In this document: piece after piece, positions 5,881 through 57,204 of the stretch | Position numbering within the stretch: the stretch's first letter is position 1 | Layout: each line of letters begins with the position of its first letter | From: an uncultured Prevotellaceae bacterium | GTDB lineage: Bacteria; Bacteroidota; Bacteroidia; Bacteroidales; Muribaculaceae | Reading direction: 5' to 3' | NCBI GenBank assembly: GCA_947169265.1 | Contig: CAMVPC010000016.1 | Location: 3,169-67,168 of the forward strand | DNA length: 64,000 bases | The notes under the pieces: generated by a model | Seen by the model: the letters and a program-made list of their open reading frames with translations, nothing else | What the model was told of the DNA's origin: nothing | The model's database searches: none | Made by a program: the position numbers and the translations under genes

Positions 5881-5882
5881 CA

Positions 5883-7403: not shown

Positions 7404-8251
7404 TAAAAATGGGGGATAATTTAAAAATGAATGAACTTGAGGCAAAATATTTGCTTCTATATCTGCTAAAGATATTTAAAACAATTTGCAAAAAAGCCTC
7501 TATAACTTATTACGCAAGTGGTGGGACTTGCCTTGGAGCTATTCGACATAAGGGTATAATTCCTTGGGATGATGATATCGACTTGATGATGCCCCGCAAA
7601 TATTATGACATCTTTGTTGATACATGCAACAAAGAATTAAAAGATCCTGTTGTTATCAGAACCCGTGAGAATGACCGTTATTTTTGTGGAGAATATATTA
7701 AAATGTGTTTCAAAGATGATGATAATAATTATAGTGATTTGTCAATAGATGTATTTTTTTTAGATGATACAAATCCAAAACGTAAATTTTTCAGAGCTAT
7801 TCAAAATAGGCTTTTGCTTGATCTGTATTTCATTAAAACTTTTAAGGTTTCCCGATTAGGCAAAGGACCACATTATGTGCCTCGAAATTTTTTTAGAAAA
7901 TGCCAAGTCTCACTATTTGGTATGTTACCAATAAGTTTCATTGATAAATTTCACAAGCGCATTATGACAGCTGAAAAATCTAATACAGATTTTTGGGTAA
8001 ACTGGGGAGCATGTTATTCATATAAAAAAGCTACATATAACAAAACTGAGTTAGGGAATCCGATCGAGATGCCTTTTGAGAATACTACCATATCTGTAGC
8101 CGAAAATCCCGAAGAAATTCTGTTGCATTTATATGGTCCCAATTATATGACACCACCTCCACCAGAAAAGAGATCGAATCACGGCATCAAACCATTTAAA
8201 TGCAAATTATTAGATATTAATCAGATTAAGCAAGAGATAGGAGTAATATAA
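7400..8251 (+). CDS. licD: LicD-family phosphotransferase
   Basis: GGTCLGAIRHKGIIPWDDDIDLMMPR, IDVF, and LYGPNYMTPPP motifs. Confidence 0.92.
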   Translation: MIKMGDNLKMNELEAKYLLLYLLKIFKTICKKASITYYASGGTCLGAIRHKGIIPWDDDIDLMMPRKYYDIFVDTCNKELKDPVVIRTRENDRYFCGEYIKMCFKDDDNNYSDLSIDVFFLDDTNPKRKFFRAIQNRLLLDLYFIKTFKVSRLGKGPHYVPRNFFRKCQVSLFGMLPISFIDKFHKRIMTAEKSNTDFWVNWGACYSYKKATYNKTELGNPIEMPFENTTISVAENPEEILLHLYGPNYMTPPPPEKRSNHGIKPFKCKLLDINQIKQEIGVI

Positions 8252-8253
8252 TC

Positions 8254-8664
8254 ATGATAATTGGTTATACACAAGGAACTTTTGACATGTTCCATATCGG
8301 TCATCTCAACTTACTTAAGAACGCAAAAGCACAATGTGACTTTTTGGTTGTTGGAGTAAATTCAGATGAATTAGTAAAGCAATATAAGAACAAAAGCGTA
8401 ATTGTCCCATTAGCGGAAAGAATGGACATTGTGGGTGCAATTAAATTCGTTGATCGAGTGATTAAATGTGACACACTTGATAAAGAAGTGGCTTTTGAGA
8501 AAATTAGATTCCAAAAAATATTTATTGGAGATGATTGGAAAGGTAACCCTCGTTGGGAAGAAACTGGCAAAAGAATGAAATCTTTAGGCGCAGAACTTGT
8601 TTACTTGCCACATACCCAAGGGACATCATCTACAATGCTGCGCAATAAATTAAAAGATTTATAA
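8254..8664 (+). CDS. Cytidylyltransferase (TagD/glycerol-3-phosphate cytidylyltransferase-like)
   Basis: GTFDMFHIGH (HxGH), GVNSDE, IGDDWKG, and YLPHTQGTSSTMLR motifs. Confidence 0.88.
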   Translation: MIIGYTQGTFDMFHIGHLNLLKNAKAQCDFLVVGVNSDELVKQYKNKSVIVPLAERMDIVGAIKFVDRVIKCDTLDKEVAFEKIRFQKIFIGDDWKGNPRWEETGKRMKSLGAELVYLPHTQGTSSTMLRNKLKDL

Positions 8665-8665
8665 G

Positions 8666-9166
8666 ATGAAAGGTTTTCATTCGTGGCTTTTGTCTGTCTG
8701 GAATGACGACATATGTGAACGTGTTAATCGAAAAGCTAATAAAAACGTATTAAAAGCATCTAAATTATGGCATTCTGGCAATAAGTTTAAGATGTTACGA
8801 GCTATGCTTTTGCATGCACGCAATATAAAGCGTTATGGATGTGAGGTTTATCCTCAAGCAAAATTAGGTGAAAATTTTTATATGCCACATTGTGTGGGGG
8901 TGGTAATTGGAAGTACTACTATTATTGGTGATAACTGCACAGTATTTCCAAATGTTGTTTTTGGGGCAAGATATTCTCCAGATAGGGATAATCCTAAAGG
9001 AAGAAGACATGCTAAAGTCGGAAACAACTGTGTATTTGGAGCGAATTCAACAATAATAGGCAATATAATAATTGGAAATAATGTTTTTATCGGTGCTGGA
9101 GCGGTTGTAACAAAAGATGTGCCTGATAATAGTATAATTATTGGCATAAATAATAAAATAAGATAA
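8666..9166 (+). CDS. Hexapeptide-repeat (CysE-like) O-acetyltransferase
   Basis: MPHCVGVVIG, IIGDNCTVFPNVVFG, and IGNNVFIGAGAVVTKDVP left-handed beta-helix repeats. Confidence 0.88.
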   Translation: MKGFHSWLLSVWNDDICERVNRKANKNVLKASKLWHSGNKFKMLRAMLLHARNIKRYGCEVYPQAKLGENFYMPHCVGVVIGSTTIIGDNCTVFPNVVFGARYSPDRDNPKGRRHAKVGNNCVFGANSTIIGNIIIGNNVFIGAGAVVTKDVPDNSIIIGINNKIR

Positions 9167-9170: not shown

Positions 9171-10223
9171 GTGGATTTTGTTTTATTGTTTTTCGCACTA
9201 GCTATTTGTGTTGCGTGTCGTAAGGCGGGAAAATCTAGTGAATTATATCTTTCATTAGATAACTCAATGAAATTGCGTGGAATTCTTGCTTTTGCGATAG
9301 TTCTGCATCACATGTCGGAGAAAATAACCACAGGTGGAAAATTCTTTCCTCTCATGGTTCATGCTGGATATTTAATTGTTGCTGTATTCTTTTTTCTGTC
9401 TGGATATGGTTGTTTGTTTTCATATATTAAGAAAGGAAAGTCTTATCTAAAAACATTTTGGAAAAATAGAATTTTGTACCTTATTATAATATATTTATTA
9501 ACAACAATAGCATATTTATTGTATTATAGAACTATAGGTCTATCTATGGGAATAAATAGTATTCTATATTCCTTTATTAATGGTAATCCTATTGCAATGA
9601 ATTCATGGTACATAATTGTACAATTATTTATGTACTTATTTTTTTATATTTCATATAGCATCCCCAAAATTAATAAATGGAGTAGAATATTATTGGCATT
9701 TAGTTTACTATTATTTTTAGCCATAATATTTGAATATTGCGAATATAAATCAATATGGTATATTTCAAATTTTGCATTTGTTTTTGGATTAATATATGCT
9801 CAAGAGAAAGATTTTTTTCAAAAAATATTGGAACGCAAATGGGCGATCATTTTTATTATTATACTTATGATTCTTGCTGTATTTTCTGCTTTGCCTTTAT
9901 TTTATGAAAATGACAATGTGTTTTCTGGTGTGTTTTCTATTCGACATATATCCAGATATATTTCTACAATATCGTTTGTTGCAATAATTATATTATTATT
10001 GTTTAAAGTCAGGATTATCGGTGTTTTTTGGGAAAGAATGGGTTTAATGTCATTAGAGATATATCTTTTACATGGTATGGTTTATTCATTCCTTCGTAGC
10101 CGTTTTTGTTACATAGAACAAGATGTGGTTTGGACAATCTTAACTATAGTCATTACTGTTATCATTTCATTCCCAGCTCATTATATTAATTCTTCAATTT
10201 CACAAATGATACGAAAAAAATGA
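9171..10223 (+). CDS. Membrane O-acyltransferase (acyltransferase family 3)
   Basis: LRGILAFAIVLHH, VAVFFFLSGYG, WYIIVQL, and SLEIYLLH motifs. Confidence 0.85.
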   Translation: MDFVLLFFALAICVACRKAGKSSELYLSLDNSMKLRGILAFAIVLHHMSEKITTGGKFFPLMVHAGYLIVAVFFFLSGYGCLFSYIKKGKSYLKTFWKNRILYLIIIYLLTTIAYLLYYRTIGLSMGINSILYSFINGNPIAMNSWYIIVQLFMYLFFYISYSIPKINKWSRILLAFSLLLFLAIIFEYCEYKSIWYISNFAFVFGLIYAQEKDFFQKILERKWAIIFIIILMILAVFSALPLFYENDNVFSGVFSIRHISRYISTISFVAIIILLLFKVRIIGVFWERMGLMSLEIYLLHGMVYSFLRSRFCYIEQDVVWTILTIVITVIISFPAHYINSSISQMIRKK

Positions 10224-10825
10224 GAGCGATTCATTTTGTATATAAATTATTTGGAGTTGCTTTTTGTAGATTGTGCCTTTGTTATTGGGATGTTCGAGAC
10301 TTTATTTCTCCACCGAAAGAAGAATCAATACTTTTTGTAGCTCATCCAGACGATGACACTCTGTTTTTCCATACATTTATCAAAAAGCATAAACCATATG
10401 TTGTATTATTAACTGCAGGGTGGTCTCTTAGACGACTCCCTTGTTTTTTTCGAACAATGAATCATTATGGTGTAAAGTATAGAGCTTATGATATGGGAAC
10501 AAGAGACAAACGTGTTTCACTATTAGAGAAACATATTAAAGCGTCTTTTTCAAAAGGAATTTTTAAGTGCTGTGCCACTCATAATGCAGAGGGGGAATAT
10601 GGTCATGAGATGCATCGTAGAGTTCATCAGGCTGTTTTAAAATACTCAAAGATTCCTGTTTTCGTACCTGTTGTATCAGATTTAATAGGTAAATATCCAT
10701 TAGACAGTACTGAAATAGACGAGAAGATTTATATTTTTAATTCATACTATACTACCGAAAAGTGGGTCATAGATCAATATTCTCATTGGGTGGTTAATGA
10801 AAAATTAGAGCTTTATACTTTATGA
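10220..10825 (+). CDS. PIG-L/LmbE-family de-N-acetylase
   Basis: VAHPDDD metal motif and GEYGHEMH second His motif. Confidence 0.75.
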   Translation: MRAIHFVYKLFGVAFCRLCLCYWDVRDFISPPKEESILFVAHPDDDTLFFHTFIKKHKPYVVLLTAGWSLRRLPCFFRTMNHYGVKYRAYDMGTRDKRVSLLEKHIKASFSKGIFKCCATHNAEGEYGHEMHRRVHQAVLKYSKIPVFVPVVSDLIGKYPLDSTEIDEKIYIFNSYYTTEKWVIDQYSHWVVNEKLELYTL

Positions 10826-11943
10826 TACCTGCTATTTATTATCATCTTTTCTATCTTCTATTTATTTCTTTTCTTAGTATATTAGCTTTTGCTAAATATC
10901 CCTGGGGAACTTCATTACAACCAATTATTAAAACAGATAATGTTAAATTTAGATTTGATATCTTATTATTTATTTTTTTGGTCTTTTTTATTGGTTTCCG
11001 TGACCCGTATTCTCGTGTATTTGTAGATACTGCTGCTTATACTTTGTTTTATGTGAGGCATTATTTAGATCTGTTTGAATGGGATTGGGATGCTCAAAAT
11101 GTTCTTTTTGATAATATCTATTACTTCATGGCCAGTACAATTCAGTCAGTGTCATGGTTTTATTTATTAATTTCATTAATTTATTTTGGTGGCATCTGGT
11201 ATGCGTGTAAAAGTTTGTTTCCAAAGGATCGATTTTCTTCTTTATTGGTTTATCTAGCTGCTTTTTCTACATTTTCTTATGCAACAAATGGAATAAAGGC
11301 TGGTGCAGCAGCATCACTTTTTTTAATTGCACTGGCTCTTAATGACAAAGATGGCAGATTAAAACTACTTTCTTATGTTCTTCTTATAATTACTATAGGA
11401 TTTCATCATTCCATGCGATTACCTGTGGTTGCTTTCGTAATTTGCAAACTAATTCGTAATCCTAGATTTTATACTTTTATATGGATAGTCTGTTTCATAC
11501 TAGCAGTTCTACGCATTTCATATTTTCAAGAATATTTTGTTGGGTTAGGAGAGGATATAGGTGATGAGAAAATAACTAGTTATCTTTCTTTAGATGATGG
11601 ACCTGGGGAAATTTATTTTACCGGTTTAAGGCTTGATTTTATAATATACTCAGTTGTTCCAATTATTGTTGGATGGATTAGTATTTATGGAAAGTCTGTA
11701 GAATCAAATAAATATTGTTTTTTGTTAAATCTTTATACATTAGTTAATGCAGTTTGGCTTCTATGTGTTCACGTTTATTTCTCTAATCGAATAGCATATT
11801 TGTCATGGCTAATGTACCCTATTGTTTTAATATATCCTTTTTTAAGGGAGAATTGGGGAGATAATAGATATGTTATTTTTAAATATGTTGCATACGGACA
11901 TCTATTGTTTACTTTGTTTATGAATTTTGTTTACTATGGATAA
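10822..11943 (+). CDS. wzy: Wzy/EpsG-family polysaccharide polymerase
   Basis: FIGFR...DT..Y, NGIKAG, FH.S, and RIAYLSW EpsG-like motifs; polytopic membrane protein. Confidence 0.8.
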   Translation: MIPAIYYHLFYLLFISFLSILAFAKYPWGTSLQPIIKTDNVKFRFDILLFIFLVFFIGFRDPYSRVFVDTAAYTLFYVRHYLDLFEWDWDAQNVLFDNIYYFMASTIQSVSWFYLLISLIYFGGIWYACKSLFPKDRFSSLLVYLAAFSTFSYATNGIKAGAAASLFLIALALNDKDGRLKLLSYVLLIITIGFHHSMRLPVVAFVICKLIRNPRFYTFIWIVCFILAVLRISYFQEYFVGLGEDIGDEKITSYLSLDDGPGEIYFTGLRLDFIIYSVVPIIVGWISIYGKSVESNKYCFLLNLYTLVNAVWLLCVHVYFSNRIAYLSWLMYPIVLIYPFLRENWGDNRYVIFKYVAYGHLLFTLFMNFVYYG

Positions 11944-12763: not shown

Positions 12764-13732
12764 ATGAAAGTTTTAGTCACTGGTGGTGCCGGTTTTATCG
12801 GTTCTAACCTTACAGAACATTTGTTAGAGAATGGACATAGTGTGCGTGTCCTCGACAATTTTGCGACAGGTCACATTGAGAACTTATTGCCATTTTTTGA
12901 AAAGTATCCTGAAACTTTTGAGCTTCAGGTAGGTGACATACGTAATCTTGCTGATTGCCGAAAGGCTGTTGATAGTATGGAATATGTTCTCCATGAGGCT
13001 GCCTTAGGTAGTGTTCCACGTTCGGTTAAAGATCCAATCACAACCAATGAGGTTAATATTGGAGGATTTCTTAATATGATTGTTGCAAGTCGAGATGCTG
13101 GAATCAAACGATTTGTTTTCGCAGCCAGCAGTTCCACATACGGCGACAGTGAGACTTTACCTAAAGTGGAAGATAAGATAGGCCGCCCGCTTTCACCATA
13201 CGCAATAACTAAATATGTTGATGAACTTTATGCCGATGTTTTTGCACGCACATACGGAATTGAGTATATAGGTTTGCGTTACTTCAACGTGTTCGGTCGT
13301 CGTCAAGACCCACATGGAGCTTATGCAGCAGTAATTCCTCTTTTTGTAAAACAATTTATGAATCACGAGGCTCCTAATATTAATGGTGATGGCGAATACA
13401 GTAGAGATTTCACTTATATCGATAACGTGATTCAGATGAATATGCTCGCGCTTACTACAACTAATGAAGAAGCGTTGAATCAAATTTACAACACAGCTTT
13501 TGGCGAGAGAACTACACTAAATCAACTTGTTGGATACTTGCGGGAATACTTAGGAGAGTTTGATGAGCAGATAAAACATATTGAGCCCACTCATGGTCCT
13601 AATCGAGTTGGTGATATTCCCCATTCTCTTGCTTGTGTTGAAAAAGCTAAGAACTTGCTGAGCTATAATCCTAAGTTTAGTATGCGAGATGGATTAAAAG
13701 AGGCCGTTAAATGGTATTGGAATAATTTATAA
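12764..13732 (+). CDS. wbpP: UDP-GlcNAc(A) 4-epimerase, WbpP/TviC-like SDR
   Basis: [34 protein letters not shown] (YxxxK), LRYFNVFG, and RDFTYIDN motifs. Confidence 0.88.
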
Positions 13733-13746: not shown

Positions 13747-15012
13747 ATGAATGATATCAAAATCTGTGTTATTGGTTTAGGTTATGTCGGACTTCCTTTA
13801 GCACGTCTTTTTTCAACAAAATACCCGACAGTTGGTTTTGACATGAGTCAAGCACGAGTAGATGCTTTGATGGAAGGTCATGATGCAACCCTTGAAGTTG
13901 CAGACGATTTATTGCAATCTGCATTGAAGAATGGTTTCAAATGTACAACTGACATTAATGCTATTCGTGATTGCAATTTCTATGTTGTAGCTGTTCCTAC
14001 CCCTGTTGATGAGAATAATAATCCAGATCTCACACCTCTTGTTGGAGCAAGCACTACAGTAGGTAAAGTTATTAATAAAGGAGATATTGTCGTGTATGAG
14101 AGCACTGTATATCCTGGTGTTACTGAAGATGAGTGTATCCCAGTTGTGGAACGCGTGAGCGGTTTGAAGTTCAATGAGGACTTCTTTGCCGGCTACAGCC
14201 CCGAGCGCATCAATCCCGGCGACAAGCTCCACACAGTAGAGAAAATCAAAAAAGTCACCTCAGGCTCTACACCCGAGGTGGCCGAAATCGTTAACAACGT
14301 TTATTCGAGCGTCATCACCGCCGGAACACACAAAGCAAGCAGCATCAAGGTGGCCGAGGCGGCGAAGGTGATTGAGAACTCACAACGTGATATCAACATA
14401 GCATTTGTCAACGAGTTATCGAAAATTTTCAACCGCATGGGCATAGATACGCAAGACGTGCTCGAAGCCGCCGGCACCAAGTGGAACTTCCTGCCGTTCA
14501 AGCCCGGTCTTGTGGGCGGTCACTGCATCGGCGTTGACCCGTACTACCTCGCCCAGTGCGCCCAGCGTTACGGTTACAACCCCGAAATCATTCTGGCCGG
14601 ACGCCGCATGAACGACGGCATGGGCGAATATGTCGCCAACGAGACCATCAAGCTCATGCTCAAGAAAGGCATTCAGGTACTCGGTAGCGACATCCTGATT
14701 ATGGGCTTCACCTTTAAGGAAAACTGCCCCGACGTGCGCAACACCAAAGTCATCGACATCTATCGCGCCCTCAAGGAATACAACCTGAATATCACCGTTT
14801 ACGACCCCTGGGCAAACCCCACAATCGCCAAACGCGAATACGGCATCGAAATCACAAACGAGTTGCCCAACCAAACCTATGATTCTGTAATTTTAGCAGT
14901 TGCACATAAAGAATTCATAGATATCAACATTACATCATTATGTAATTCAAACCACATCATTTTTGATGTTAAAGGAATGTTGGATAAATCTCTGATTGAT
15001 GGAAGGCTCTAA
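13747..15012 (+). CDS. wbpO: UDP-N-acetylhexosamine 6-dehydrogenase, WbpO/TviB-like
   Basis: [42 protein letters not shown], and [10 protein letters not shown] motifs. Confidence 0.88.
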
Positions 15013-16171
15013 AAAGAAGATCATTAGGATGACAACAATTCCAGGCTCTATGAGGGGATTGTTGCAAAACCAACTCAAATTTATGTCTCAACATGGATAT
15101 GAGATGGTTGCATTATCATCTGATGATTCATGTTTTGATGAGATGCTTCACGAACAAGGTGACATTAGAGGGATTCGCATCAATATGGAGCGCCACACTT
15201 CGCCTATCAAAGACCTTAAAGCTCTCATCAAAATATATAAGGTTTTTCGCAAAGAGAAACCATTTATTGTTCATACTCATACCCCTAAAGCTGGCTTGCT
15301 TGGCATGCTTGCGGCAAAACTCGCAGGAGTGCCTCACAGACTTCACACTACAGCCGGCCTTCCATTACTTGTCTATAGTGGCACATATCGTAAGATACTA
15401 AATGCAATGGAGAGGCTAACTAACACCTGCGCAACTCAAGTTTTCCCAAATTCTTTCAATATGATGAAAACTATGGAAGAACTTCATTTGTGCAGTTCCA
15501 AAAAGATGAGAGTTATCGGCAATGGCAGCAGTAACGGAATTGATACTAAGCATTTCTCTGTTGAAAAAACGATAGAAGATACAGGCAAAGATAGAAGCAT
15601 GTGGCGAAAAGAGCTTGGTCTAGAAGCAGATGATTTCGCTTTTGTCTATGTTGGTAGAGTTGTAAAAGATAAAGGAATTAACGAACTCGTTAATTGTATG
15701 CGCCGGCTATTGCCGCAGAACAAAAACTGCAGATTAATCATGGTTGGCAAATATGAATCAAATCTCGACCCGATTGCTCCAGAGAATGTGGAATTCTTCA
15801 AGAATGACAAATCGTCCATATTTATGGGATGGCAAAAGGATGTCAGGCCTTTCATGATGGCAGCTGATGCTTTAGTATTCCCTAGTTATAGGGAGGGGTT
15901 CCCTAACGTAGTTATGCAAGCAGGAGCAATGGGCTTGCCTTCAATTGTAACTGATATAAACGGATGTAATGAAATAATTGATGAAGGGAAAAATGGACGC
16001 ATAATACCCTCCAAAAATGAAGATGCGCTTTATAGCATGATGGAGTGGTTCCTCAATAATCCTGGGGATGTTAAGAATATGGCAAACAAGTCTCGAGAAA
16101 TGATAGTCTCACGATATGACCGCCAAGTAATGTGGGAAGAAATTCTTAAAATGTATAATGACTTGAAGTAA
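14996..16171 (+). CDS. GT4 glycosyltransferase (CapM-like)
   Basis: [18 protein letters not shown], and [13 protein letters not shown] motifs. Confidence 0.9.
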
Positions 16172-16782
16172 TGTACAAGCGGTTTTTCAAGCGGTTTTTG
16201 GATTTTTGGATTGCACTTATTGCGCTGATATGCTTATCGCCGCTGCTGTTGGTGGTGACTGTTTGGCTGCATTTTGCTAATAAAGGAGCCGGTGCATTTT
16301 TCTTGCAGGAGCGCCCTGGCAAGGATGCCAAGATTTTCAAGATTATCAAGTTCAAAACAATGACCGATGAGCGAGACGCGGAAGGAAATCTTCTTCCTAA
16401 CGATAAAAGAATAACAAAAATTGGCAACATTTTGCGTGGAACCTCAATTGACGAATTACCTCAACTAATAAACGTGCTTAAGGGCGACATGGCATTGATT
16501 GGCCCGAGGCCACTAATGCCACGATATCTTAAATTATATTCACCTGAGCAGGCTCGACGGCATGATGTGCGTCCAGGCATTACAGGTTGGGCTCAAGTGA
16601 ATGGACGTAATAACATTTCTTGGACAGATAAGTTTAAGCTTGATGTATGGTACGTTGATCATTGTTCATTTTGCCTTGATTGCAAAATCATTTATAAGAC
16701 AATAGTTAATGTCATCAATCGTAAAGACATTGAATATGACGGGAATTCATTAAACTCAGAGGGTTTCAACGGGCATAATTGA
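16171..16782 (+). CDS. PglC-like priming sugar-1-phosphate transferase
   Basis: KRFLD, QERPG, KFKTM, DELPQLINVLKGDMALIGPRP, and [14 protein letters not shown]; short single-TM form. Confidence 0.9.
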   Translation: MYKRFFKRFLDFWIALIALICLSPLLLVVTVWLHFANKGAGAFFLQERPGKDAKIFKIIKFKTMTDERDAEGNLLPNDKRITKIGNILRGTSIDELPQLINVLKGDMALIGPRPLMPRYLKLYSPEQARRHDVRPGITGWAQVNGRNNISWTDKFKLDVWYVDHCSFCLDCKIIYKTIVNVINRKDIEYDGNSLNSEGFNGHN

Positions 16783-16783: not shown

Positions 16784-18019
16784 ATGAAGAAGTTTATGAT
16801 ATTAGCTGGTGGCAATGATCAGGCAGCGTTGATAAAAGAGTTGAAATATCATTTTAATGGTGATGTTGAGATTATATTACTTGATATGTCATCTAACGTG
16901 AAGGCAAAATCGTGTGCAGATAAATTTCTGCAAATCAGCACGATGGATCGTGATGCGGTTCTTAAATCCGCAAAAGAGGAAAATATAGACTATATCTTAA
17001 CGGCTTGTGGGGACCAACCTCTTTCGACTATGGCATATGTATCGGCAAAAATGGGGCTTCCTTGCTATTTAAGTGAAGATGATGTGCTGAATTTGACAAA
17101 TAAAATCTATATGAAACGTAAGATGGTAGAGAATGATATTCCCACATCTAAGTTTCAAATTATTGAAAATATTGATGATAAAATAAATCTTGATGAATTC
17201 GAGTGGCCTATCATAGTCAAGCCTGTTGATAGCAATGGGTCTAAAGGGGTCAAGAAAGTGGAGCGAAAGGAGGATTTCCGAACATTGCTCAAAGAAGCAC
17301 TTTCATTTTCTTTGTCGAGAAACGCTATAGTGGAAGAATTTAAGGCTGGAGAGGAATTGTCAGTGGATGTTTATGTAGAAGGTTCTACAGCTAAGATTCT
17401 CTTAGTGACTACATCTAAAAAGATTCGAGAGAACAAAGATTCTTTCACGATATTGCAAAGTGAATATCCTCCTAGGATTCATTTTTCGGAAACTCGAATT
17501 CTTGAGATTGTTCAAAAAATAGTTAACACATTTAATCTCCATGACACACCATTGTTGGTCCAAATGATAACAAATGGAGTTGATTATTATGTTGTCGAGT
17601 TTAGCGCCAGAATGGGCGGTGGCTCAAAGTATCATTTAATTAATGTTCTCACAGGTGTGAATATAATGAGTGTTTACGTAGATATGGTTTTGGGTAAACA
17701 TCCATCTGTTACACCAAACAAAAATTGGAATAATGCGCTGATGTGTTATCTATATTGCACTCCCGGCATTTTTATGAAATTAAGTTGTTTTGACGATATG
17801 TGTAATAAAGGTATTATGCACAGCTATTTCACTTACAAAATGCCGAATTCTGAGATTAAGAAATCTACAACAAGCAGCGATCGAGTTGCTGGATTCCTTG
17901 TCGTTGGAAATTCTCGTGTCGAGGTAGAAAATAAATTAAGACTAATCAATGAAACCGTAAAAGTTCTTGACCCTACGGGTAAAGACATTATGCGGCATGA
18001 TTTTTTTATTAATAGTTAA
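16784..18019 (+). CDS. ATP-grasp ligase
   Basis: IIVKPVDSNGSKGV, IVEEFKAGEELSVD, and VVEFSARMGGG motifs; pre-ATP-grasp ILAGG..Q N-terminus. Confidence 0.85.
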   Translation: MKKFMILAGGNDQAALIKELKYHFNGDVEIILLDMSSNVKAKSCADKFLQISTMDRDAVLKSAKEENIDYILTACGDQPLSTMAYVSAKMGLPCYLSEDDVLNLTNKIYMKRKMVENDIPTSKFQIIENIDDKINLDEFEWPIIVKPVDSNGSKGVKKVERKEDFRTLLKEALSFSLSRNAIVEEFKAGEELSVDVYVEGSTAKILLVTTSKKIRENKDSFTILQSEYPPRIHFSETRILEIVQKIVNTFNLHDTPLLVQMITNGVDYYVVEFSARMGGGSKYHLINVLTGVNIMSVYVDMVLGKHPSVTPNKNWNNALMCYLYCTPGIFMKLSCFDDMCNKGIMHSYFTYKMPNSEIKKSTTSSDRVAGFLVVGNSRVEVENKLRLINETVKVLDPTGKDIMRHDFFINS

Positions 18020-18022
18020 AAA

Positions 18023-19096
18023 ATGAAGATAGCAGTTATTGGAGCTGGGAATGGAGGTCAAGCCATATCTGGCTATTTAAGTATGATTGGTTATGAGATA
18101 AGTCTATATGATATAGATGAGAATCGTATAAGCCACCTTAAGACCAAAGGCGGTATTACCTTACAAGGTAGATTGCAAGGATTCGGGAAAGTTTCATGTA
18201 TTACGACTAGTTTATATGAGGCGGTAAAAGGTGCAAAGATTATCCTTATTACTACGGTTGCTAATGCTCATTCAAATGTAGCTAAAAGTATTGCTCCTTT
18301 TATAGAAGACGACCAAATTATTATCTTAAGTCCAGGAAGAACATGCGGTGCTATAGTGTTCAAGCAGACATTAAAGAACAATGGTTGCAATAAAAGAATA
18401 TATCTGGCAGAGGCTCAAACGCTTGTTTATGCCTGTCGCATTGTTGAGGATGGATGCGTCAATATTATAGGAATAAAAGATGAGGTGTTGCTCTCTGCAA
18501 TACCTGCAAGTGACACCGATCATGTCTTGAAAATGATAACACCAATATATCCATGTTTTCAAAAGGCTGAAAATGTTTTAAGGACAAGCCTTGAAAATAT
18601 TGGTGCGATGTTTCATCCTTGTGTATTATTGTTTAATGCTGCAACAATTGAAAGAAATGAAGTATTTTGGTTCTATCGGGACATGACAGAACAGGTGGCT
18701 TCATTCATAGAGAAATTTGACGCCGAGCGTTTAGCTGTAGGCAATGCATATGGTGTTAAATTGCTTGGAGTCAGGGACTGGATTAAATTCGCTTATAATG
18801 ATACTGAAGGAGAATCACTCTGTGAACGTATGCGTAACAATCCTGCTTATCATGATATAAAATCGCCTTCAACAATATTTACAAGGCAATTAATTGAAGA
18901 CATCCCAACCGGCGTGCTGCCAATTATGGAACTTGGAAGAGCTGCTGGCGTCAGGACACCACTTTTAGAGTCGATGGTGAATATTTGCGAGGCATTGTTG
19001 AATATGGATTTGAGAAGCAATGGAAGAAGCTTATCAAACTTAGGATTAAAAGGATTAAACAAAGACGAAATAATAAATTATATTATTAATGAGTAA
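18023..19096 (+). CDS. NAD(P)-dependent opine (octopine/nopaline family) dehydrogenase
   Basis: GAGNGG Rossmann motif, PGRTCGA, AEAQTLVYACR, NIGAMFHP, and EDIPTGVLP family motifs. Confidence 0.85.
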   Translation: MKIAVIGAGNGGQAISGYLSMIGYEISLYDIDENRISHLKTKGGITLQGRLQGFGKVSCITTSLYEAVKGAKIILITTVANAHSNVAKSIAPFIEDDQIIILSPGRTCGAIVFKQTLKNNGCNKRIYLAEAQTLVYACRIVEDGCVNIIGIKDEVLLSAIPASDTDHVLKMITPIYPCFQKAENVLRTSLENIGAMFHPCVLLFNAATIERNEVFWFYRDMTEQVASFIEKFDAERLAVGNAYGVKLLGVRDWIKFAYNDTEGESLCERMRNNPAYHDIKSPSTIFTRQLIEDIPTGVLPIMELGRAAGVRTPLLESMVNICEALLNMDLRSNGRSLSNLGLKGLNKDEIINYIINE

Positions 19097-20936
19097 CGAT
19101 GTTTATGGTTTTATAAAGCCCCTTGTTGATGTCCATACAATGGGGATGTTCACTATCGCCAATCTTCTTCGCGACTGTGGTTATGTCGTTCACATTGCAA
19201 ATGATGATATTAACAAGGCTATCGAGGATATTCATAAGATTAATAACTATAGCTTATTAAAAAGGTGGATAATTGATAATGGTATAACGAAATTAAGTGT
19301 TAGCTATAGGCTTGATCCTAAAGATGGTTGTGATTATTTCATGTCAGTATATGAACATTTGAGAAGTGATAATATGCTTGTCGAAAAAGGTGGAACGATT
19401 AAGAGTATATCTTTTGCTGGGCTACCTGACACATGTGACATGATTCGTTCTAAAACCGACAATATTTTGCTCTTTAAAGGCGATGAGACACCGATTGAAT
19501 CTCTTCGCTTATATGGTGTTCCTGATAATATACTTCCTCCTTCCATTGACAATGATAATCCATATGACAAAATGAGGTGGGAATTTGCGGAGAAACTGAT
19601 ATCTTCAGAACGATACAAAATCGAGCCGGCTCTTAACCACTATGGATATCCTGAATGTGGAAAAGATAACGATAGCTATCTCCGTCGTCTGAATTATGCT
19701 AAAATGAAGCATTCGCTTCCAATAATAAGGACTCACTCCGGTCCGTATAATCCAAACAGAGAGGAAGCTTTAAAAGAATACAACTCTTGGTGTCAAGATT
19801 TAGCTCAAAGTAAGTTACTTGATGTTCTTTCTATTGGGAGTTCTCAACTCACGCAATCTCATTTTGGAGAAGATTGGGAAGGCTTGCCAAATGGTGGAGG
19901 TATTCCTGTTAATTCAGAACTTGAATACCAGATTATAAGAGATAATGCAAGGCCAATGCTTACTAGAACATACTCAGGCACAAAGAATGTTCCCGAGCTC
20001 GCAAGAATTCATGAGCGGGCTCTAAATATTTCTTGGCATGCTTTATCGTTTTGGTGGTTTGATGAGTTGGATGGGAGGGGAGATAATTCTCTCCTTGACA
20101 ATCTTAAAGAACATTTTGAGGCAATACGTTATATAGCAACGACCGGGAAACCAGTTGAGCCCAATGTCCCTCATCATTTTGCCTTTAGGGGTGCTGATGA
20201 TATAACGTATATAATAAGTGGGTATTTGGCTGCAAAAGCTTGTAAAAAGCTTGGTGTAAAGCATCTGATACTTCAAAATATGCTCAATACGCCTAAATAC
20301 ACAATTGGTGTTCAGGACATTGCAAAGGGAAGGGCGATGTTGAGACTTGTAAGAGAGCTTGAAGATTTAGATTTCTCTGTAAGTTTACAACTAAGAGCTG
20401 GATTGGATTATTTTGCACCTGATTTGGAAAAAGCGAAAGTTCAACTAGCCGCAGTTACATGTATGATGGATGATATTGAACCGGAAAACGATAATAGTCC
20501 TGAGATTATACATGTGGTTAATTACAGTGAAGCGGTCAGATTAGCAACGCCACCTATTATAAAAGATAGCATCAGGATTACTTTAAATGCTCTTTACGAA
20601 TATAGGAATGCGCGTAAGCTTGGGAAAGTGCCAAATATGAAATATGACCTTGGCACAATTAATCGAACAGAAGCTTTGTATTCAGAGGCAAAGAGCGCTA
20701 TTATGCTATTGGAAAATAATATTCCGAATCTTTATACTCCAGAAGGATTCTATAAAGTCTTTATTGAGGGATTTCTTCCCGTGCCATACCTGATGGATCC
20801 CAAGAAAAAATTTCCGAAAGCGACAAGATATCATACAGCGATTAAGAATGGAGGTATAAGTGTTGTTGATGATAAAGGCACTATCTTTAATACCGCTGAA
20901 AGATACAAAAAGATTATCTCAAACATGGAGATCTAA
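19089..20936 (+). CDS. Cobalamin-binding protein: N-terminal His-on B12 domain fused to a probable TIM-barrel catalytic domain (mutase- or methyltransferase-like)
   Basis: DVHTMG matches the DxHxxG B12 motif at residues 13-18, followed by SYRL and FAG at positions matching SxL and GG. About 450 further residues show alternating beta/alpha character. Confidence 0.7.
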   Translation: MSNDVYGFIKPLVDVHTMGMFTIANLLRDCGYVVHIANDDINKAIEDIHKINNYSLLKRWIIDNGITKLSVSYRLDPKDGCDYFMSVYEHLRSDNMLVEKGGTIKSISFAGLPDTCDMIRSKTDNILLFKGDETPIESLRLYGVPDNILPPSIDNDNPYDKMRWEFAEKLISSERYKIEPALNHYGYPECGKDNDSYLRRLNYAKMKHSLPIIRTHSGPYNPNREEALKEYNSWCQDLAQSKLLDVLSIGSSQLTQSHFGEDWEGLPNGGGIPVNSELEYQIIRDNARPMLTRTYSGTKNVPELARIHERALNISWHALSFWWFDELDGRGDNSLLDNLKEHFEAIRYIATTGKPVEPNVPHHFAFRGADDITYIISGYLAAKACKKLGVKHLILQNMLNTPKYTIGVQDIAKGRAMLRLVRELEDLDFSVSLQLRAGLDYFAPDLEKAKVQLAAVTCMMDDIEPENDNSPEIIHVVNYSEAVRLATPPIIKDSIRITLNALYEYRNARKLGKVPNMKYDLGTINRTEALYSEAKSAIMLLENNIPNLYTPEGFYKVFIEGFLPVPYLMDPKKKFPKATRYHTAIKNGGISVVDDKGTIFNTAERYKKIISNMEI

Positions 20937-21074: not shown

Positions 21075-22064
21075 ATGAGTGTTTCTTTATCCATCATAAT
21101 TCCGGTTTATAACGTTGAGCGATACCTTCCTGTTTGTCTGGAAAGTATCGTTCAGCAGCATTTGGCGGATTATGAGGTCATCATGGTGGATGATGGCTCC
21201 ACCGACGGCTCTGGAGCGATATGTGACGAGTTTGCGGAGCGTTATCCTGAGTTTAGGGTAATTCACAAGGAGAATGGAGGAGTTTCCGCTGCTCGAAATC
21301 GCGGGATTGAGGAGGCTAAGGGTGAGTATATATTGTTCCTCGACTCAGACGACTTCTTGGTTCCTGATGCCATTAAACCTTTGCTTGAGCTTGCCGGGGA
21401 TAATAAACTTGACGTATTGGGCTTTGGCTATCGTGTGGTGCCTGAAAATGTGGCATCCGCTCCACCTGCCGACACAGAGGAACCGCAACACATACAGATT
21501 CTTGATGGATTTGAATATATCTCTCGTTACAACTATACAGCGCAAGTTTGGTGGTATCTTGTGCGACGTGAACTTCTAATTAAGAATAATCTTCGGCTTC
21601 CTGTTGGCCATGTGCTTGAGGAGGCTGCTTTTAATATGCGCCTGTTCTTAATGTCGAAATGTCTTGCCCAAGTCCCAAATGTTGCTTACTGCTACCGTAA
21701 CCGCGCATCCAGCATTATGCACATTGCCGACAAGGAGCATGTGTCGAAGATGCTTGCTGATTACATCTTTGCGGCAAGCAGCATGAACGAGGCAATTGAA
21801 GAATACCGAGACAAGCTGCACGGTGAGTGCTATGAACGCTGTCGCACACGCCGCGACAGCTATGTGATGTTTGGAGCCCTACGCGCTTTCAAACTTGGAA
21901 AAGTGAAAGAATATCTGCAAGAAGCCAAGCGAAATAATCTGTACCCTTTTAAGAAACTGAGTGAGGTTGACTATCCCGGCCTCAAGTTCAAACTGTTACA
22001 ATGGTGCGTATCAAAGCCTCGACTGCTGATGACACTAAGCCACATCTATAGATTCTTAAACTAA
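21075..22064 (+). CDS. GT2 glycosyltransferase
   Basis: SIIIPVYNVE, DDGSTD, NGGVSAARNRG, and FLDSDD motifs. Confidence 0.92.
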   Translation: MSVSLSIIIPVYNVERYLPVCLESIVQQHLADYEVIMVDDGSTDGSGAICDEFAERYPEFRVIHKENGGVSAARNRGIEEAKGEYILFLDSDDFLVPDAIKPLLELAGDNKLDVLGFGYRVVPENVASAPPADTEEPQHIQILDGFEYISRYNYTAQVWWYLVRRELLIKNNLRLPVGHVLEEAAFNMRLFLMSKCLAQVPNVAYCYRNRASSIMHIADKEHVSKMLADYIFAASSMNEAIEEYRDKLHGECYERCRTRRDSYVMFGALRAFKLGKVKEYLQEAKRNNLYPFKKLSEVDYPGLKFKLLQWCVSKPRLLMTLSHIYRFLN

Positions 22065-22082
22065 CCGTAACTGTTACAATTT

Positions 22083-23042
22083 ATGAATAATATCTTAATC
22101 TGTTCTGCGGGTCGGCGGGTTTCGCTTGTCAAGGAGTTTCAGCAAACAGCTGCCGACGTAGATAAATCAATAAAAGTATTTGCCTCAGATATGCGTCCCG
22201 ACATGGCGGCCGCATGCTTCGTTGCCGATGCCGCATTTCAGGTACCTCCCTTGTCGGATGAAAGATTTATCGACACGCTGCTGTCGATTTGTATATCCAA
22301 CAATGTGGGAATCGTAATTCCAACCATTGACACGGAATTGCCGCTACTGGCAGCCAATAAAGAGGAGTTTGCCTCCCATGGTATTCATTTAGTCGTGAGC
22401 TCGCCAGAATACATCGCAAAGTGCTGCGACAAGCGTAGCACGATAAGGGTTTTTGAAAAATACGGCATCCGCACACCGCGGCATATCGATCCCAATCATC
22501 CCGAGTTCCCGATGTTTGCAAAACCCTACAACGGCTCAAGCAGTAAGAATGTGCATGTTATCAAGAGTGCCGATGACTTGAGCGAGAGCGTGGCTAATGA
22601 TTCTAAACTTATGTTCATGGAGTATATCAACAAGAATGAATATGTCGAGTTCACTGTTGATATGTATTATGGCCGCGACAATCATGTGAAAGCCATCGTT
22701 CCGCGCGAGCGCTTTGAAATTCGCTGCGGCGAGATCAGCAAGGGCTTGACACGAAAGAATTTCCTTGTCGGCTTCTTGAAAGGGCGTGTGGAGTATCTAC
22801 CTGGTGTGGTCGGACCGGTGTGTATCCAGTTGTTTTACCGTGAGAGCGACAATGACATTGTCGGAATTGAAATCAACCCACGATTTGGAGGAGGCTATCC
22901 GTTATCCTATCATGCGGGAGCCAATTTCCCTAAAATGATATTTGAAGAGTATTTGCAAGGCAAAATGATGAACTATTGCGAAGACTGGCGCCACAACCTC
23001 ACGATGCTTCGCTACGATGCCGAAATAATTGTTGAATCTTAG
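22083..23042 (+). CDS. ATP-grasp protein (PylC/carbamoyl-phosphate-synthase-like small family)
   Basis: ILICSAGRRV, IPTIDTEL, AKPYNGSSSK, EFTVD, and EINPRFGGGYP motifs. Confidence 0.85.
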   Translation: MNNILICSAGRRVSLVKEFQQTAADVDKSIKVFASDMRPDMAAACFVADAAFQVPPLSDERFIDTLLSICISNNVGIVIPTIDTELPLLAANKEEFASHGIHLVVSSPEYIAKCCDKRSTIRVFEKYGIRTPRHIDPNHPEFPMFAKPYNGSSSKNVHVIKSADDLSESVANDSKLMFMEYINKNEYVEFTVDMYYGRDNHVKAIVPRERFEIRCGEISKGLTRKNFLVGFLKGRVEYLPGVVGPVCIQLFYRESDNDIVGIEINPRFGGGYPLSYHAGANFPKMIFEEYLQGKMMNYCEDWRHNLTMLRYDAEIIVES

Positions 23043-23054
23043 GCTTGATATGTC

Positions 23055-24077
23055 ATGATGCTAAGCATCATCATTCCTTTATATAACTGCGCCGCCTATG
23101 TTGAGCGGTGCATTCTCTCTATCTATGCGCAAGGCCTTAATGAGCGTGACTTTGAGGTGATAGTTGTCAATGATGGATCAACCGATGGAGGCGAGAAGAT
23201 CGTCGAAGAGCTTGCAAAGACACGCCCCAACCTTTTCTTGCTGAGTCAGGAGAACAAAGGGTTGTCGGTAACACGCAATCGTGGAGTGGAGGTGGCAAGA
23301 GGACGTTATGTGCAATTCCTCGATGCCGACGATTATCTCATTCCCAACGGTATGCCAAGATTGCTTAAAACCGCAGTTGATAACAATGTTGACATTTTGG
23401 TGTTCAAAACCAAGAGAGTGGAAGACACTATCGCACTTGGCTTGCCCGAACACAAAGAAGTTCTTAACGAGAACTACAAAGTATCTCCTGTCTTGACAGG
23501 TTATGAAGCTGAGATCTATGAGTCAATGCCGGAGTACATATTCTCGGTTAATTATATGTTCATGAGACGGCAGATGTATATAGACCACAATCTACGTTTC
23601 GCCACCGACATGGCATTCGGAGAGGACGGTATTGTTTCGATGCAGCTCTTCATCAACGCAAATCGGGTGATGGTGACTGACTGCCTCATTCACCGTTATG
23701 TGAACAGAATTTCAAGCTTGTGTAATTCACATGCGAAAAAGATTCACGTGAACCGTATAAGATGCTACAAGAAGGCGGCGATAGAGTTTCATCGCATTAA
23801 CGAGACCCACAAGGATCGCTCCGCACAAGGATATGATTTGCACCGCCAGCGCATAAATCTATTCATTTTCTTTTACCTTTATGGCGCGATGAAAGATGAT
23901 ATTCCTACCTCCGAACTTATTGCCGAAATAAAAGAACTCAGAGAACATGATTTATATCCTATAGGAACATTTGAATATTTTGGCTATACAGGTTTTAAGA
24001 ACAAGTTCCTGATTGCTTTCTGTAACACGGGTGGACTTTTCACATTGTCCCACAGAATCCTACACTTATTTAGATGA
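23055..24077 (+). CDS. GT2 glycosyltransferase
   Basis: SIIIPLYN, NDGSTD, NKGLSVTRNRG, FLDADD, and GED motifs. Confidence 0.9.
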   Translation: MMLSIIIPLYNCAAYVERCILSIYAQGLNERDFEVIVVNDGSTDGGEKIVEELAKTRPNLFLLSQENKGLSVTRNRGVEVARGRYVQFLDADDYLIPNGMPRLLKTAVDNNVDILVFKTKRVEDTIALGLPEHKEVLNENYKVSPVLTGYEAEIYESMPEYIFSVNYMFMRRQMYIDHNLRFATDMAFGEDGIVSMQLFINANRVMVTDCLIHRYVNRISSLCNSHAKKIHVNRIRCYKKAAIEFHRINETHKDRSAQGYDLHRQRINLFIFFYLYGAMKDDIPTSELIAEIKELREHDLYPIGTFEYFGYTGFKNKFLIAFCNTGGLFTLSHRILHLFR

Positions 24078-24712
24078 AGGTCATAGTATTCGATCTTGAC
24101 GACACGCTCTACAAAGAGATTGATTTCCTCAAGTCGGCCTACCGTGAGATGGCTGAGAATTTGGGGCGTCCAGAGATGTATGACTATATGTTGCGACTAT
24201 ATCGTGATGGCGACAATGCATTCAAGTGTGCCATAGAAAAATATCATTTGCCGGTTACGATTGAACAATTGCTCGAAATATACCGAACACACAAACCACA
24301 CATAGCACTTGATGATGCTGCGAGAACGACGCTTGCTACACTAATGTCACGCAGTATCGTTTTGGGGCTGATGACCGACGGACGCTCAGTAACTCAGCGC
24401 AACAAGATAGAGGCATTAGGTTTAGGGCATTGGATTGGCAACGAAGATATACTGGTTTCAGAAGAGTTCGGTTGTGGAAAGCCCGACGAGCGTTGCTATC
24501 GTTATTTCATGGACAAGCGCCCTAATGCCAGGCACTACTACGTTGGCGACAATCTCAGCAAAGATTTCGTGATGGCAAACAAACTGGGCTGGACCACGAT
24601 GTGCCTGCTTGATGATGGAAGAAACATTTTCAAACAAGACTTCACTATTGAGACACAATATTTGCCGAAATACAAAATTAATACCTTAAAAGAAATACTG
24701 AATTTAATATGA
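24074..24712 (+). CDS. HAD-superfamily hydrolase
   Basis: FDLDDTLY (motif I), TDG, KP, and YVGDNLSKD (motif IV). Confidence 0.9.
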   Translation: MKVIVFDLDDTLYKEIDFLKSAYREMAENLGRPEMYDYMLRLYRDGDNAFKCAIEKYHLPVTIEQLLEIYRTHKPHIALDDAARTTLATLMSRSIVLGLMTDGRSVTQRNKIEALGLGHWIGNEDILVSEEFGCGKPDERCYRYFMDKRPNARHYYVGDNLSKDFVMANKLGWTTMCLLDDGRNIFKQDFTIETQYLPKYKINTLKEILNLI

Positions 24713-24773
24713 AAGAGAGTTGTGGCTCGTTGCGGAGCTGATGGCTCGGTTTAAAGAATGGCTATGGAAATTG

Positions 24774-24794
24774 GCTGGGTTGTGCCGGCTTTTT
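24774..24794 (+). terminator. Weak candidate intrinsic terminator after the polysaccharide operon
   Basis: gctgg-N6-ccggc stem (one GU pair) followed by ttttt. Confidence 0.3.
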
Positions 24795-24940
24795 GTTGAT
24801 GGGAAATGGGCGTCTTCCGGGGGGGTGGGAGGCGTTTTTTATGTTTTTGGTGGGTGGGTTTGGCGTTTTGGGTTGATTTCGCTATCTTTGCGGTTTTGAG
24901 ATTGTTAACGTAAGTTGATTTTTCGAGAAATCGCGCTGTT

Positions 24941-27852: not shown

Positions 27853-27924
27853 CGCGGGGTGGAGCAGTGGTAGCTCGTTGGGCTCATAACCCAGAGGTCG
27901 TAGGTTCAAATCCTGCCCCCGCCA
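27853..27924 (+). tRNA. Initiator tRNA-Met (CAT)
   Basis: Cloverleaf with CAT anticodon, GGG/CCC anticodon stem, mismatched 1:72 pair, A11:U24, and a TTCAAAT T-loop. CCA is not encoded. Confidence 0.95.
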
Positions 27925-36496: not shown

Positions 36497-36773
36497 ATGA
36501 CGCATCACAGCTGATAGTTCTTTGAAACAATGATATCATCCACATCAAAGCTGATTGGGATACTCTTCAAATTATTATGAAATGCCGAGACCGGTGTTCA
36601 TACTAATGGCGGGCCTCGACCGGCAACGGTGTCTTCGCGACCGGAGGATTACAAAGGTATGAACGCTCTCAAATCCTGTCTTTTTCGGAGTTTCATCACA
36701 TCCCTTTGGTGTGGATTTCTCATCATGACGTGCCACAATGAGTAGCTACACTCTTGTGGCACGTTATTTTTTT
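36497..36773 (+). ncRNA. Structured small RNA, probable 6S/Bacteroidales-1-like
   Basis: Own promoter (GTTG 36458-61, TATCTTTG 36482-89); nested long-range stems 36538-50/36704-16, 36577-90/36683-96 and 36594-603/36657-66; strong terminator at the end; no credible ORF. Confidence 0.7.
36728..36773 (+). terminator. Intrinsic terminator of the ncRNA
   Basis: acgtgccacaa/ttgtggcacgt 11-bp stem followed by T7. Confidence 0.85.
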
Positions 36774-55668: not shown

Positions 55669-55678
55669 AGTCCCTCAA

Positions 55679-57145: not shown

Positions 57146-57191
57146 AATTACTTTCTTTTTGATTCAAATATTCTCTTACTTCTTGCGATTG

Positions 57192-57199
57192 CAAAGTTA
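57192..57199 (-). promoter_or_regulatory. -7 promoter element TAACTTTG for the Schlafen-SLOG pair
   Basis: caaagtta on the + strand, about 45 nt upstream of ATG 57145. Confidence 0.6.
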
Positions 57200-57204
57200 A
57201 ATCT

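Follow-up and report, generated by a model that had tools for sequence, protein, structure and literature searches.

A glutamate-mutase-like, presumed cobalamin-dependent protein encoded with an opine dehydrogenase and an ATP-grasp ligase in a Bacteroidales surface-glycan operon

A glycan operon of an uncultured Prevotellaceae bacterium contains three consecutive genes that encode an ATP-grasp amide ligase, an opine dehydrogenase and a single-chain protein resembling glutamate mutase, referred to here as P0002, P0003 and P0001, respectively. They lie in a 64-kb stretch of DNA (C16:3169-67168; hereafter the window, to which plain nucleotide positions refer), which is part of a host genome of 2.9 Mb in 74 contigs that is 95.6% complete, and the nearest matching loci in the genome collection that we used come from uncultured rumen Prevotellaceae. 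The trio directly follows the gene of a small priming transferase, and these genes, together with the two predicted domains of P0001, are as follows.

16171..16782, + strand: priming transferase, a polyprenyl-phosphate sugar-phosphate transferase of 203 residues (PF02397 Bac_transf, E 2.9e-64)
16784..18019, + strand: P0002, ATP-grasp amide ligase of 411 residues (PF13535, 48.3 bits)
18023..19096, + strand: P0003, opine dehydrogenase of 357 residues (PF02317, 134.3 bits)
19089..20936, + strand: P0001, glutamate-mutase-like protein of 615 residues (fold match, hhalign)
19089..19508, + strand: predicted cobalamin-binding Rossmann domain of P0001, residues ~1-140 (motif, family profile)
19674..20894, + strand: predicted GlmE-like triosephosphate isomerase (TIM) barrel domain of P0001, residues 196-602 (hhalign)

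Open reading frame (ORF) calling places all four genes on the plus strand, with 1 nt and then 3 nt between the first three and an overlap of 8 nt between the last two, in agreement with a first-pass annotation of the same DNA, which had also described the trio as AT-rich; its G+C content (GC) is indeed 0.36-0.39, compared with 0.53-0.58 for the core genome to the right. The three enzyme classes named in that annotation (ATP-grasp enzyme, opine dehydrogenase and B12 protein) were likewise correct, as judged by PF13535, by PF02317 and by a DVHTMG motif together with the predicted fold of P0001.

By itself P0001 exceeds no family threshold in Pfam or NCBIfam and has no match by sequence in the PDB. 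Its motif DVHTMG (DxHxxG; residues 14-19, nt 19128-19145) lies in a region that gives a sub-threshold match to the B12-binding Pfam family PF02310 (E 0.0098, 16 bits versus a cut-off of 32), and a profile of the P0001 family matches nothing in the PDB but B12 domains (4jgi, 1.3e-4; 2yxb, 7.4e-4). The link to GlmE, the E component of glutamate mutase, comes instead from domain matches in distant relatives, from a fold search, and from hhalign comparison with GlmE of Clostridia genomes. The family is narrow, with 422 representatives (E<=0.001) in a set of 1.84 billion clusters at 50% identity, but its close copies are numerous. Among the 8,000 candidates with the most words in common, to which scoring was confined, the homologous clusters at 90% identity number over 2,800 at least, and the best 120 of these are 74-90% identical to P0001 and derive mainly from rumen and gut metagenomes. 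Distant members contain PF02310 together with a weak PF06368 match (27.5 bits in P0164), and some are fused to MutL, the glutamate mutase chaperone. P0164, which does not reach GlmE when searched against the PDB by sequence, is a mutase-like protein fused to an ATP-grasp domain of the glutathione-synthetase/RimK type. Across P0204, P0223, P0235, P0164 and P0198, the mutase-like part is variously fused to a MutL, a RimK-type ATP-grasp or an M15 peptidase domain.

The AlphaFold model of P0001 (38 family members) has a mean predicted local distance difference test score (pLDDT) of 92.7 and a predicted template modeling score (pTM) of 0.92, and its best Foldseek match is the E chain of glutamate mutase (1cb7_B; E 2.9e-13, template modeling score normalized to the target 0.62, 508 columns), ahead of lysine 5,6-aminomutase and IcmF. 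As modeled, P0001 joins a cobalamin-binding domain to a GlmE-type barrel and is a relative of glutamate mutase (GlmS/GlmE, also MutS/MutE; EC 5.4.99.1; PDB 1CB7, 1CCW, 6H9E), which likewise combines a B12-binding Rossmann domain that has a His ligand with a TIM barrel, although glutamate mutase consists of two subunits whereas P0001 is one S-E fusion chain of 615 residues. The positions associated with the B12 motif are well conserved in the 38-member alignment (H16 34/38, G19 34/38, S72 33/38 and G111 36/38). Genes for a PduO-type adenosyltransferase and methylmalonyl-CoA mutase are present in the host genome, and a PF06368 search of that genome for a canonical GlmE gave no match at E<=1. P0001 is very probably dependent on adenosylcobalamin and is presumed to be a carbon-skeleton isomerase. 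The first-pass annotation had allowed the B12 protein either to rearrange or to methylate an amino acid; the former fits the GlmE and lysine 5,6-aminomutase folds, while a corrinoid methyltransferase was rejected because the best fold matches are mutases. A B12-dependent radical-SAM (S-adenosylmethionine) enzyme was also considered and rejected, as P0001 has neither a CxxxCxxC motif nor a match to PF04055.

The relationship to glutamate mutase does not extend to the details of the substrate pocket. The reference set consisted of seven canonical GlmE sequences from Clostridia genomes, all encoded between MutL-like and methylaspartase-like genes, and hhalign aligned residues 196-602 of P0001 with residues 47-440 of GlmE over 364 columns (probability 85%, E 6e-6). 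The alignment is anchored, in the order GlmE/P0001, by G68/G218, D89/D245, NGFPG/GGIPV, GT151-152/GT297-298, W167/W316, D260/D410 and the motif FxxDxxKA. In GlmE the carboxylates of the substrate are bound by an arginine claw formed by R66, R100 and R149, and E171 contacts the glycyl amine (PMC10947579). The claw residues correspond in P0001 to H216, Q256 and Y295, which are kept in 35/38, 34/38 and 36/38 of the family members, respectively, while E171 corresponds to D328 (kept in 37/38) and Y177 and Y181 have no counterparts, as they fall in a segment that is deleted in P0001. K326 of GlmE is not retained in P0001 according to hhalign, and E330 of GlmE, which binds the adenosyl ribose in glutamate mutase, aligns with E481 (kept in 34/38). 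The P0001 family has other conserved arginines instead, namely R214 (38/38), R293 (30/38), R330 (35/38), R200 (37/38) and R436 (36/38). With all of the claw positions replaced, P0001 is thus, strictly speaking, no glutamate mutase, and its differing pocket suggests that it probably acts on a substrate other than free glutamate bound in the manner of GlmE. Two further differences are that PF06368 (Met_asp_mut_E), a feature of glutamate mutase, has no match in P0001, and that canonical glutamate mutase loci have MutL and methylaspartase genes as neighbors whereas the P0001 gene has neither, being accompanied by an opine dehydrogenase gene.

That partner enzyme, P0003, scores far above the PF02317 cut-off of 30 bits, matches Arthrobacter CENDH (PDB 1BG6) over its full length (E=7.7e-72) and has the Rossmann motif GxGxxG as GAGNGG at residues 7-12, so that its sequence clearly identifies it as an NAD(P)H-dependent, CENDH-like opine dehydrogenase. 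A recent study of metagenomic opine dehydrogenases (PMC10787698, published in 2024) described a His-Asp catalytic dyad as well as a subclass with a preference for L-Asp and L-Glu as partners of pyruvate, and reported that an Arg at position 111 of ArODH together with a Gly at position 198 switches the specificity. In the alignment of P0003 to 1BG6, R106 and G194 take the places of ArODH A111 and N198, the catalytic dyad is formed by H198 and D293, and all four residues are invariant across 39 mutase-linked dehydrogenases from Bacteroidales and Clostridia. P0003 is therefore assigned, on the basis of these residues, to the acidic-amino-acid subclass of opine dehydrogenases, and the opine logic of the first-pass annotation is strengthened by the presence of the Arg/Gly pair that governs this preference. 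Full-length homology and the catalytic His and Asp are common to P0003, CENDH and the characterized enzymes mODH-45, mODH-47, mODH-48 and mODH-582, and the Arg/Gly pair is common to P0003 and the acidic mODH subclass. Three characterized opine dehydrogenases are 44-55% identical to the mutase-linked dehydrogenases of Clostridia, and P0003 differs from the mODH enzymes both in its lower identity (35-38%) and in that its gene overlaps that of a mutase.

The third member of the trio, P0002, exceeds the PF13535 cut-off of 27 bits, and its sequence matches in the PDB are 4dim and the L-amino acid ligases RizA (4wd3) and BL00235 (3vot). No equivalog cut-off is reached in NCBIfam. The model of P0002 (pLDDT 91.6) gives 4dim, 4wd3, 3vot and PurT (1kj8) as its top fold matches, with Foldseek E values of 1e-24 to 1e-28. 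P0002 thus has both an ATP-grasp domain above threshold and the three-domain fold, and it is an ATP-grasp ligase of the structural group that contains the L-amino acid ligases, PurT and PurD. RizA, BL00235, PurT and PurD, which share this fold, convert a small acid to an acyl phosphate that is then coupled to an amine, but their identity to P0002 is just 17-20%.

The genome collection contains 23 loci whose copy is complete or almost complete, 22 in Bacteroidales and one in Lachnospiraceae. The dehydrogenase gene is directly upstream of the mutase gene in all but one of these (22/23), the exception being locus L009, where the two are 2.7 kb apart. All 23 modules include an ATP-grasp gene, although from several subfamilies, and 14 have the small priming transferase, which in 11 lies directly upstream of the ligase. 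Since the same gene order is seen in 23 independent loci, the arrangement is not due to chance. In every one of the 23 loci the trio is located among glycan genes such as those for priming transferases, C4 aminotransferases and glycosyltransferases (GT). The 117 proteins encoded by the three nearest genes on each side in 21 Bacteroidales loci include Bac_transf (13), GT1 (13), DegT (12), Epimerase (8), GT2 (8) and Polysacc_synt_2 (5) proteins and flippases (4), where the DegT proteins are C4 aminotransferases resembling LegC/PseC or DesI. Two arrangements recur, one being transferase, ligase, dehydrogenase and mutase, which may be followed by a LegC-like aminotransferase, and the other being DesI-like aminotransferase, ligase, dehydrogenase, mutase and then a flippase or GT2. 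The window represents the first of these minus the aminotransferase; the nearest LegC-like C4 aminotransferase in the host genome (C1:104482-105609) stands alone in a non-glycan neighborhood and is 70% identical to the one that lies 3' of the mutase gene in locus L001. The module is found in five of the 201 genomes of the taxonomic family of the host, and this patchy presence fits a variable glycan cassette. A cultured strain, Prevotella sp. P5-92, also has the module, at locus L013.

Variants of the module were also seen. Two loci (L012 and L018, both at 5829-7986) have two tandem opine dehydrogenase paralogs, ~63% identical to P0003, in front of one mutase gene. Between the dehydrogenase and mutase genes of L009 (4211-7984) there are a PF14397 sugar-transfer-associated ATP-grasp protein, a short-chain dehydrogenase/reductase (SDR) and an aldo-keto reductase. 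In L024 (8001-8579), beside a priming-transferase-like gene, the coding sequence of the mutase is reduced to its last ~190 residues, and this copy looks like the remnant of a decayed cassette.

In Clostridia the P0001 family is found in 17 of 300 genomes, and in the 15 loci that were examined the dehydrogenase gene is adjacent to the mutase gene in 13. The neighbors identified there are Ddl-like ATP-grasp ligases, an energy-coupling factor (ECF) transporter S component, a mannitol-dehydrogenase-like protein, transaldolase and SDRs. In the maximum-likelihood tree there is a deep split between a clade of short (~550 residues), Ddl-linked Clostridia proteins and a clade of long proteins, and the copies from glycan loci form one group within the long clade, with support of 100/100 for the Bacteroidales copies and of 86/47 when that from Lachnospiraceae is included. 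The glycan association anticipated by the first-pass annotation accordingly holds for the 22 Bacteroidales loci and the Lachnospiraceae locus but not for most of the Clostridia pairs, which suggests that the core pair makes a building block of which glycan synthesis is one deployment.

The same annotation had called the pathway undescribed, and this must be qualified, as the pairing of mutase and dehydrogenase was predicted in 2009. Zhang, Rodionov, Gelfand and Gladyshev (2009; BMC Genomics 10:78; PMC2667541) predicted a new family of B12-dependent proteins in 11 genomes of Firmicutes, Chloroflexi and Thermotogae, with a distant B12-binding domain at the N-terminus, a PF02317 dehydrogenase always encoded next to it and genes for D-Ala-D-Ala ligase and asparagine synthase close by. 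This description, rather than a sequence comparison, matches the P0001 family, and the Clostridia loci fit it. The 2009 study gave neither the GlmE fold assignment nor the glycan context, both of which come from the present analysis of P0001. No paper in the literature searched ties glutamate mutase and opine dehydrogenase to glycans.

There is a chemical precedent for opines on glycans. Alanopine is N-linked to 4-amino-4,6-dideoxyglucose (Qui4N) in the Providencia alcalifaciens O35 O-antigen, and N-epsilon-(1-carboxyethyl)-lysine is found on galacturonic acid (GalA) in that of P. rustigianii O14. In both, N-carboxyethyl amino acids are amide-linked to glycan sugars; the differences are that these opines have unbranched skeletons, occur in a different phylum, and are made by genes that the literature searched does not link to a B12 enzyme. 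A parallel to pyrrolysine biosynthesis by PylB, PylC and PylD, also raised in the first-pass annotation, holds only as an analogy, in that a mutase, an ATP-grasp ligase and a dehydrogenase are combined. PylB is a radical-SAM enzyme whereas P0001 lacks CxxxCxxC, and P0002 scores 40.5 bits against the PylC model TIGR03909, far below the cut-off of 248.3, so that membership in the PylBCD system was rejected.

We propose that the trio is a portable cassette by which a non-standard acidic amino acid is made and then amide-linked to a sugar of a surface polysaccharide, a reading to which we assign a probability of roughly 0.55. From the observed gene arrangement, folds and families, active-site residues and neighborhoods we infer the use of cobalamin, the substrates, the order of the steps and the acceptor. 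The dehydrogenase would condense an L-amino acid of the Glu or Asp type with pyruvate at the expense of NAD(P)H to give an N-(1-carboxyethyl) amino acid. P0001, with adenosylcobalamin, would then catalyze a radical 1,2 shift of the carbon skeleton in the glutamyl part to give a branched product of the 3-methylaspartate type, so that the net product would be a tricarboxylic acid that is both branched (3-methylaspartate-type) and N-carboxyethylated. The ligase would convert one of its carboxylates to an acyl phosphate and couple it to an amine, most likely that at position 4 of a nucleotide- or lipid-linked 4-amino-4,6-dideoxy-hexose, and the small priming transferase and the glycosyltransferases would incorporate the decorated sugar into the polymer. 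The acceptor is more likely to be an amino sugar than a uronic acid, given the fold class of the ligase and the repeated occurrence of C4 aminotransferases and small priming transferases near the trio, which suggests that an amino sugar is N-acylated. We have a slight preference for the dehydrogenase acting before the mutase rather than the reverse, because the arginine claw is replaced and additional arginines are conserved, and because a mutase-ligase fusion protein exists. More specifically, P0001 may represent a new "opine mutase" class of adenosylcobalamin-dependent carbon-skeleton isomerases that rearranges the N-(1-carboxyalkyl)glutamate supplied by its obligate partner dehydrogenase, with the branched tricarboxylic product in Bacteroidales being amide-linked to a 4-amino sugar, and this narrower proposal is a tentative one with the odds somewhat against it.

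The trio is part of a typical Bacteroidales glycan operon (1.3-24.7 kb of the window). In order, this encodes Ugd, acyltransferases, two GT4 enzymes, a Wzx-like flippase, LicD with a cytidylyltransferase, and a GT2; then a TviC-like epimerase, a TviB-like dehydrogenase, a GT4, the small priming transferase and the trio; and lastly a GT2, a second ATP-grasp protein, a GT2 and a hydrolase of the haloacid dehalogenase (HAD) family. The features that bear on the sugars made by the locus and on the limits of the operon are as follows.

1335-2573: Ugd (family match)
12764-13732, + strand: TviC-like epimerase on the route to UDP-N-acetylgalactosaminuronic acid (UDP-GalNAcA) (NF011728, E 4e-111)
13747-15012, + strand: TviB-like C6 dehydrogenase on the route to UDP-GalNAcA (NF011729, E 1.4e-166)
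14996..16171, + strand: GT4 glycosyltransferase, before the priming transferase (PF00534, PF13692)
21075..24712, + strand: 3' part of the operon, with GT2, second ATP-grasp protein (22083-23042), GT2 and HAD hydrolase (24074-24712)
24773..24837, + strand: terminator-like hairpins that close the operon (12-pair stem, then a T run)

The uronic acid genes that had been noted at this locus, those for Ugd and the TviC- and TviB-like enzymes, are thus all present. No intergenic terminator-like site was found between 16171 and 24712, and no cobalamin riboswitch in the 64-kb window. The second ATP-grasp protein is PylC-like_N and scores 367.6 bits against NF009405 (cut-off 390); it and the HAD hydrolase are encoded among GT2 genes where the operon ends, and in locus L005 such an ATP-grasp/HAD pair is directly 3' of the mutase gene. 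The logic of this pair resembles that of Cj1438C and the phosphatase Cj1435 of Campylobacter jejuni, where the ATP-grasp domain of Cj1438C amidates the glucuronic acid (GlcA) of the capsule with phosphorylated amines and the phosphate is then stripped off by the phosphatase. The GC of the glycan locus is a mosaic, with values of 0.27-0.33 at 3-13 kb, 0.36-0.48 at 13-21 kb and 0.43-0.46 at 21-25 kb compared with 0.53-0.58 in the core, which suggests cassettes of different origin. A cluster at 7400-9166 encodes a LicD-family transferase, a small cytidylyltransferase and a serine-acetyltransferase-like hexapeptide protein, and suggests a phospho-alcohol decoration, of the choline or glycerol type, of the same glycan. 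Two ORFs of the operon (201 and 373 residues; 10220-11943) have no significant match in Pfam or NCBIfam; the shorter has a sub-threshold PIG-L match only and the longer might be a polymerase. Elsewhere in the window there are a tRNA gene (27853-27924), a Bacteroidales-1 (6S-like) RNA (36538-36722, 111.7 bits), and, as a second island of low GC (~0.31), a minus-strand region (55213-63734) that encodes a Schlafen/AlbA_2 protein, a 1255-residue YobI-like P-loop nucleoside triphosphatase, a 274-residue protein without a family and a 594-residue SMC_N/AAA_15 ATPase, and which looks like a defense island.

Several points weigh against the proposed cassette. The basis of the pocket mapping is a predicted model together with a profile alignment whose probability is 85%, rather than a solved structure, no biochemically characterized member of the P0001 family was found in the literature searched, and a tblastn search of the host genome did not find a MutL-type reactivase. 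The Asp of DxHxxG (residue 14) is D in 22/38 and Cys in 13/38 of the family members, Cys being present mostly in distant ones. The pair is mostly outside glycan loci in the 15 Clostridia loci, the locus in the window makes both UDP-GalNAcA and UDP-GlcA and has no DegT aminotransferase, and the characterized relatives of P0003 favor Asp over Glu (PMC10787698). This last preference fits better with the reverse order of steps, in which P0001 would interconvert free L-glutamate and 3-methylaspartate, the dehydrogenase would pull this unfavorable equilibrium through condensation of 3-methylaspartate with pyruvate, and the ligase would attach the same end product, with no new substrate for the mutase. 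Conversion of L-Asp in preference to L-Glu is what would be expected with an aspartate analog as the substrate, and P0001 retains both the glutamate mutase fold and an acidic residue in place of E171 (D328, 37/38). However, replacement of all three claw arginines and the failure of PF06368 to detect P0001 argue against such a reaction, as does the fact that the natural-product pathways known to need 3-methylaspartate use canonical GlmS/GlmE, and we consider this order of events rather unlikely. Another reading is that P0001 is a barrel enzyme with a different cofactor or none, its N-terminal domain being a Rossmann fold that resembles a B12 domain but has degenerated, which would be consistent with the sub-threshold PF02310 score of P0001 alone, with the variable Asp, and with the loss of GlmE K326. 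We regard it as quite improbable given that His16 and Gly19 are each kept in 34/38, that the family profile matches solved B12 domains, that the equivalent of the adenosyl-binding residue E330 is conserved, and that some relatives are fused to MutL.

The acceptor could also be a uronic acid, as the first-pass annotation had assumed, in which case the ligase would activate the C6 carboxylate of GalNAcA or GlcA and join it through an amide bond to the unusual amino acid at its amino group, comparable to the amino-acid amides that uronic acids form in Proteus and Providencia. The TviB/TviC-like enzymes and Ugd are indeed encoded upstream in the window and in the same order in locus L017, the window's locus lacks an aminotransferase, and the ATP-grasp domain of Cj1438C amidates the GlcA of a capsule. 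Such an attachment is nevertheless disfavored because the opine of a mono-amino acidic amino acid retains a secondary amine only, with no free primary amine. Moreover, the recurrent partners of the trio are priming transferases and C4 aminotransferases and not uronate dehydrogenases, the fold neighbors of P0002 activate small acids, Cj1438C is of a different, TupA-like ATP-grasp type, and the second ATP-grasp protein with its HAD phosphatase is better suited to uronate amidation than is P0002; we therefore judge this route improbable. A soluble product (an opine-type chelator, osmolyte or signal), with the position in the glycan operon being incidental, seems highly improbable. Opine dehydrogenases do make metallophores such as staphylopine, and the Clostridia pair is next to Ddl-like ligases, the ECF S component and sugar-alcohol dehydrogenases rather than glycan genes, but all 23 loci are in glycan operons where the genes are co-directional and often 1-10 nt from the priming transferase, the copies from glycan loci cluster in the tree, and neither an exporter nor a receptor gene was seen beside the trio. 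What survives of the first-pass interpretation as a whole are therefore the enzyme classes, the glycan context and the opine logic, and not the novelty of the pairing, the uronate link or the PylBCD parallel other than as an analogy.

The gene pair is already known as a prediction, of which the link to the glutamate mutase fold and the glycan operon context of the cassette were not part. To our knowledge, about a dozen adenosylcobalamin-dependent isomerases are known, and P0001 is a well-defined target for a new B12 reaction because it has a confidently predicted fold, a clear partner enzyme and a pocket unlike that of glutamate mutase. Its position in a glycan operon by a priming transferase, together with the altered pocket, makes it a strong candidate for new B12 chemistry. 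If the product is indeed placed on capsule or O-antigen sugars, this would be the first known cobamide-dependent step in the biosynthesis of a surface polysaccharide, and it would represent a new type of acidic decoration that is relevant to recognition by phages and hosts. Most Bacteroidales in gut and rumen communities must scavenge cobamides, and the chemistry of the glycan, and hence the serotype, would then be tied to the supply of cobamides in these communities.

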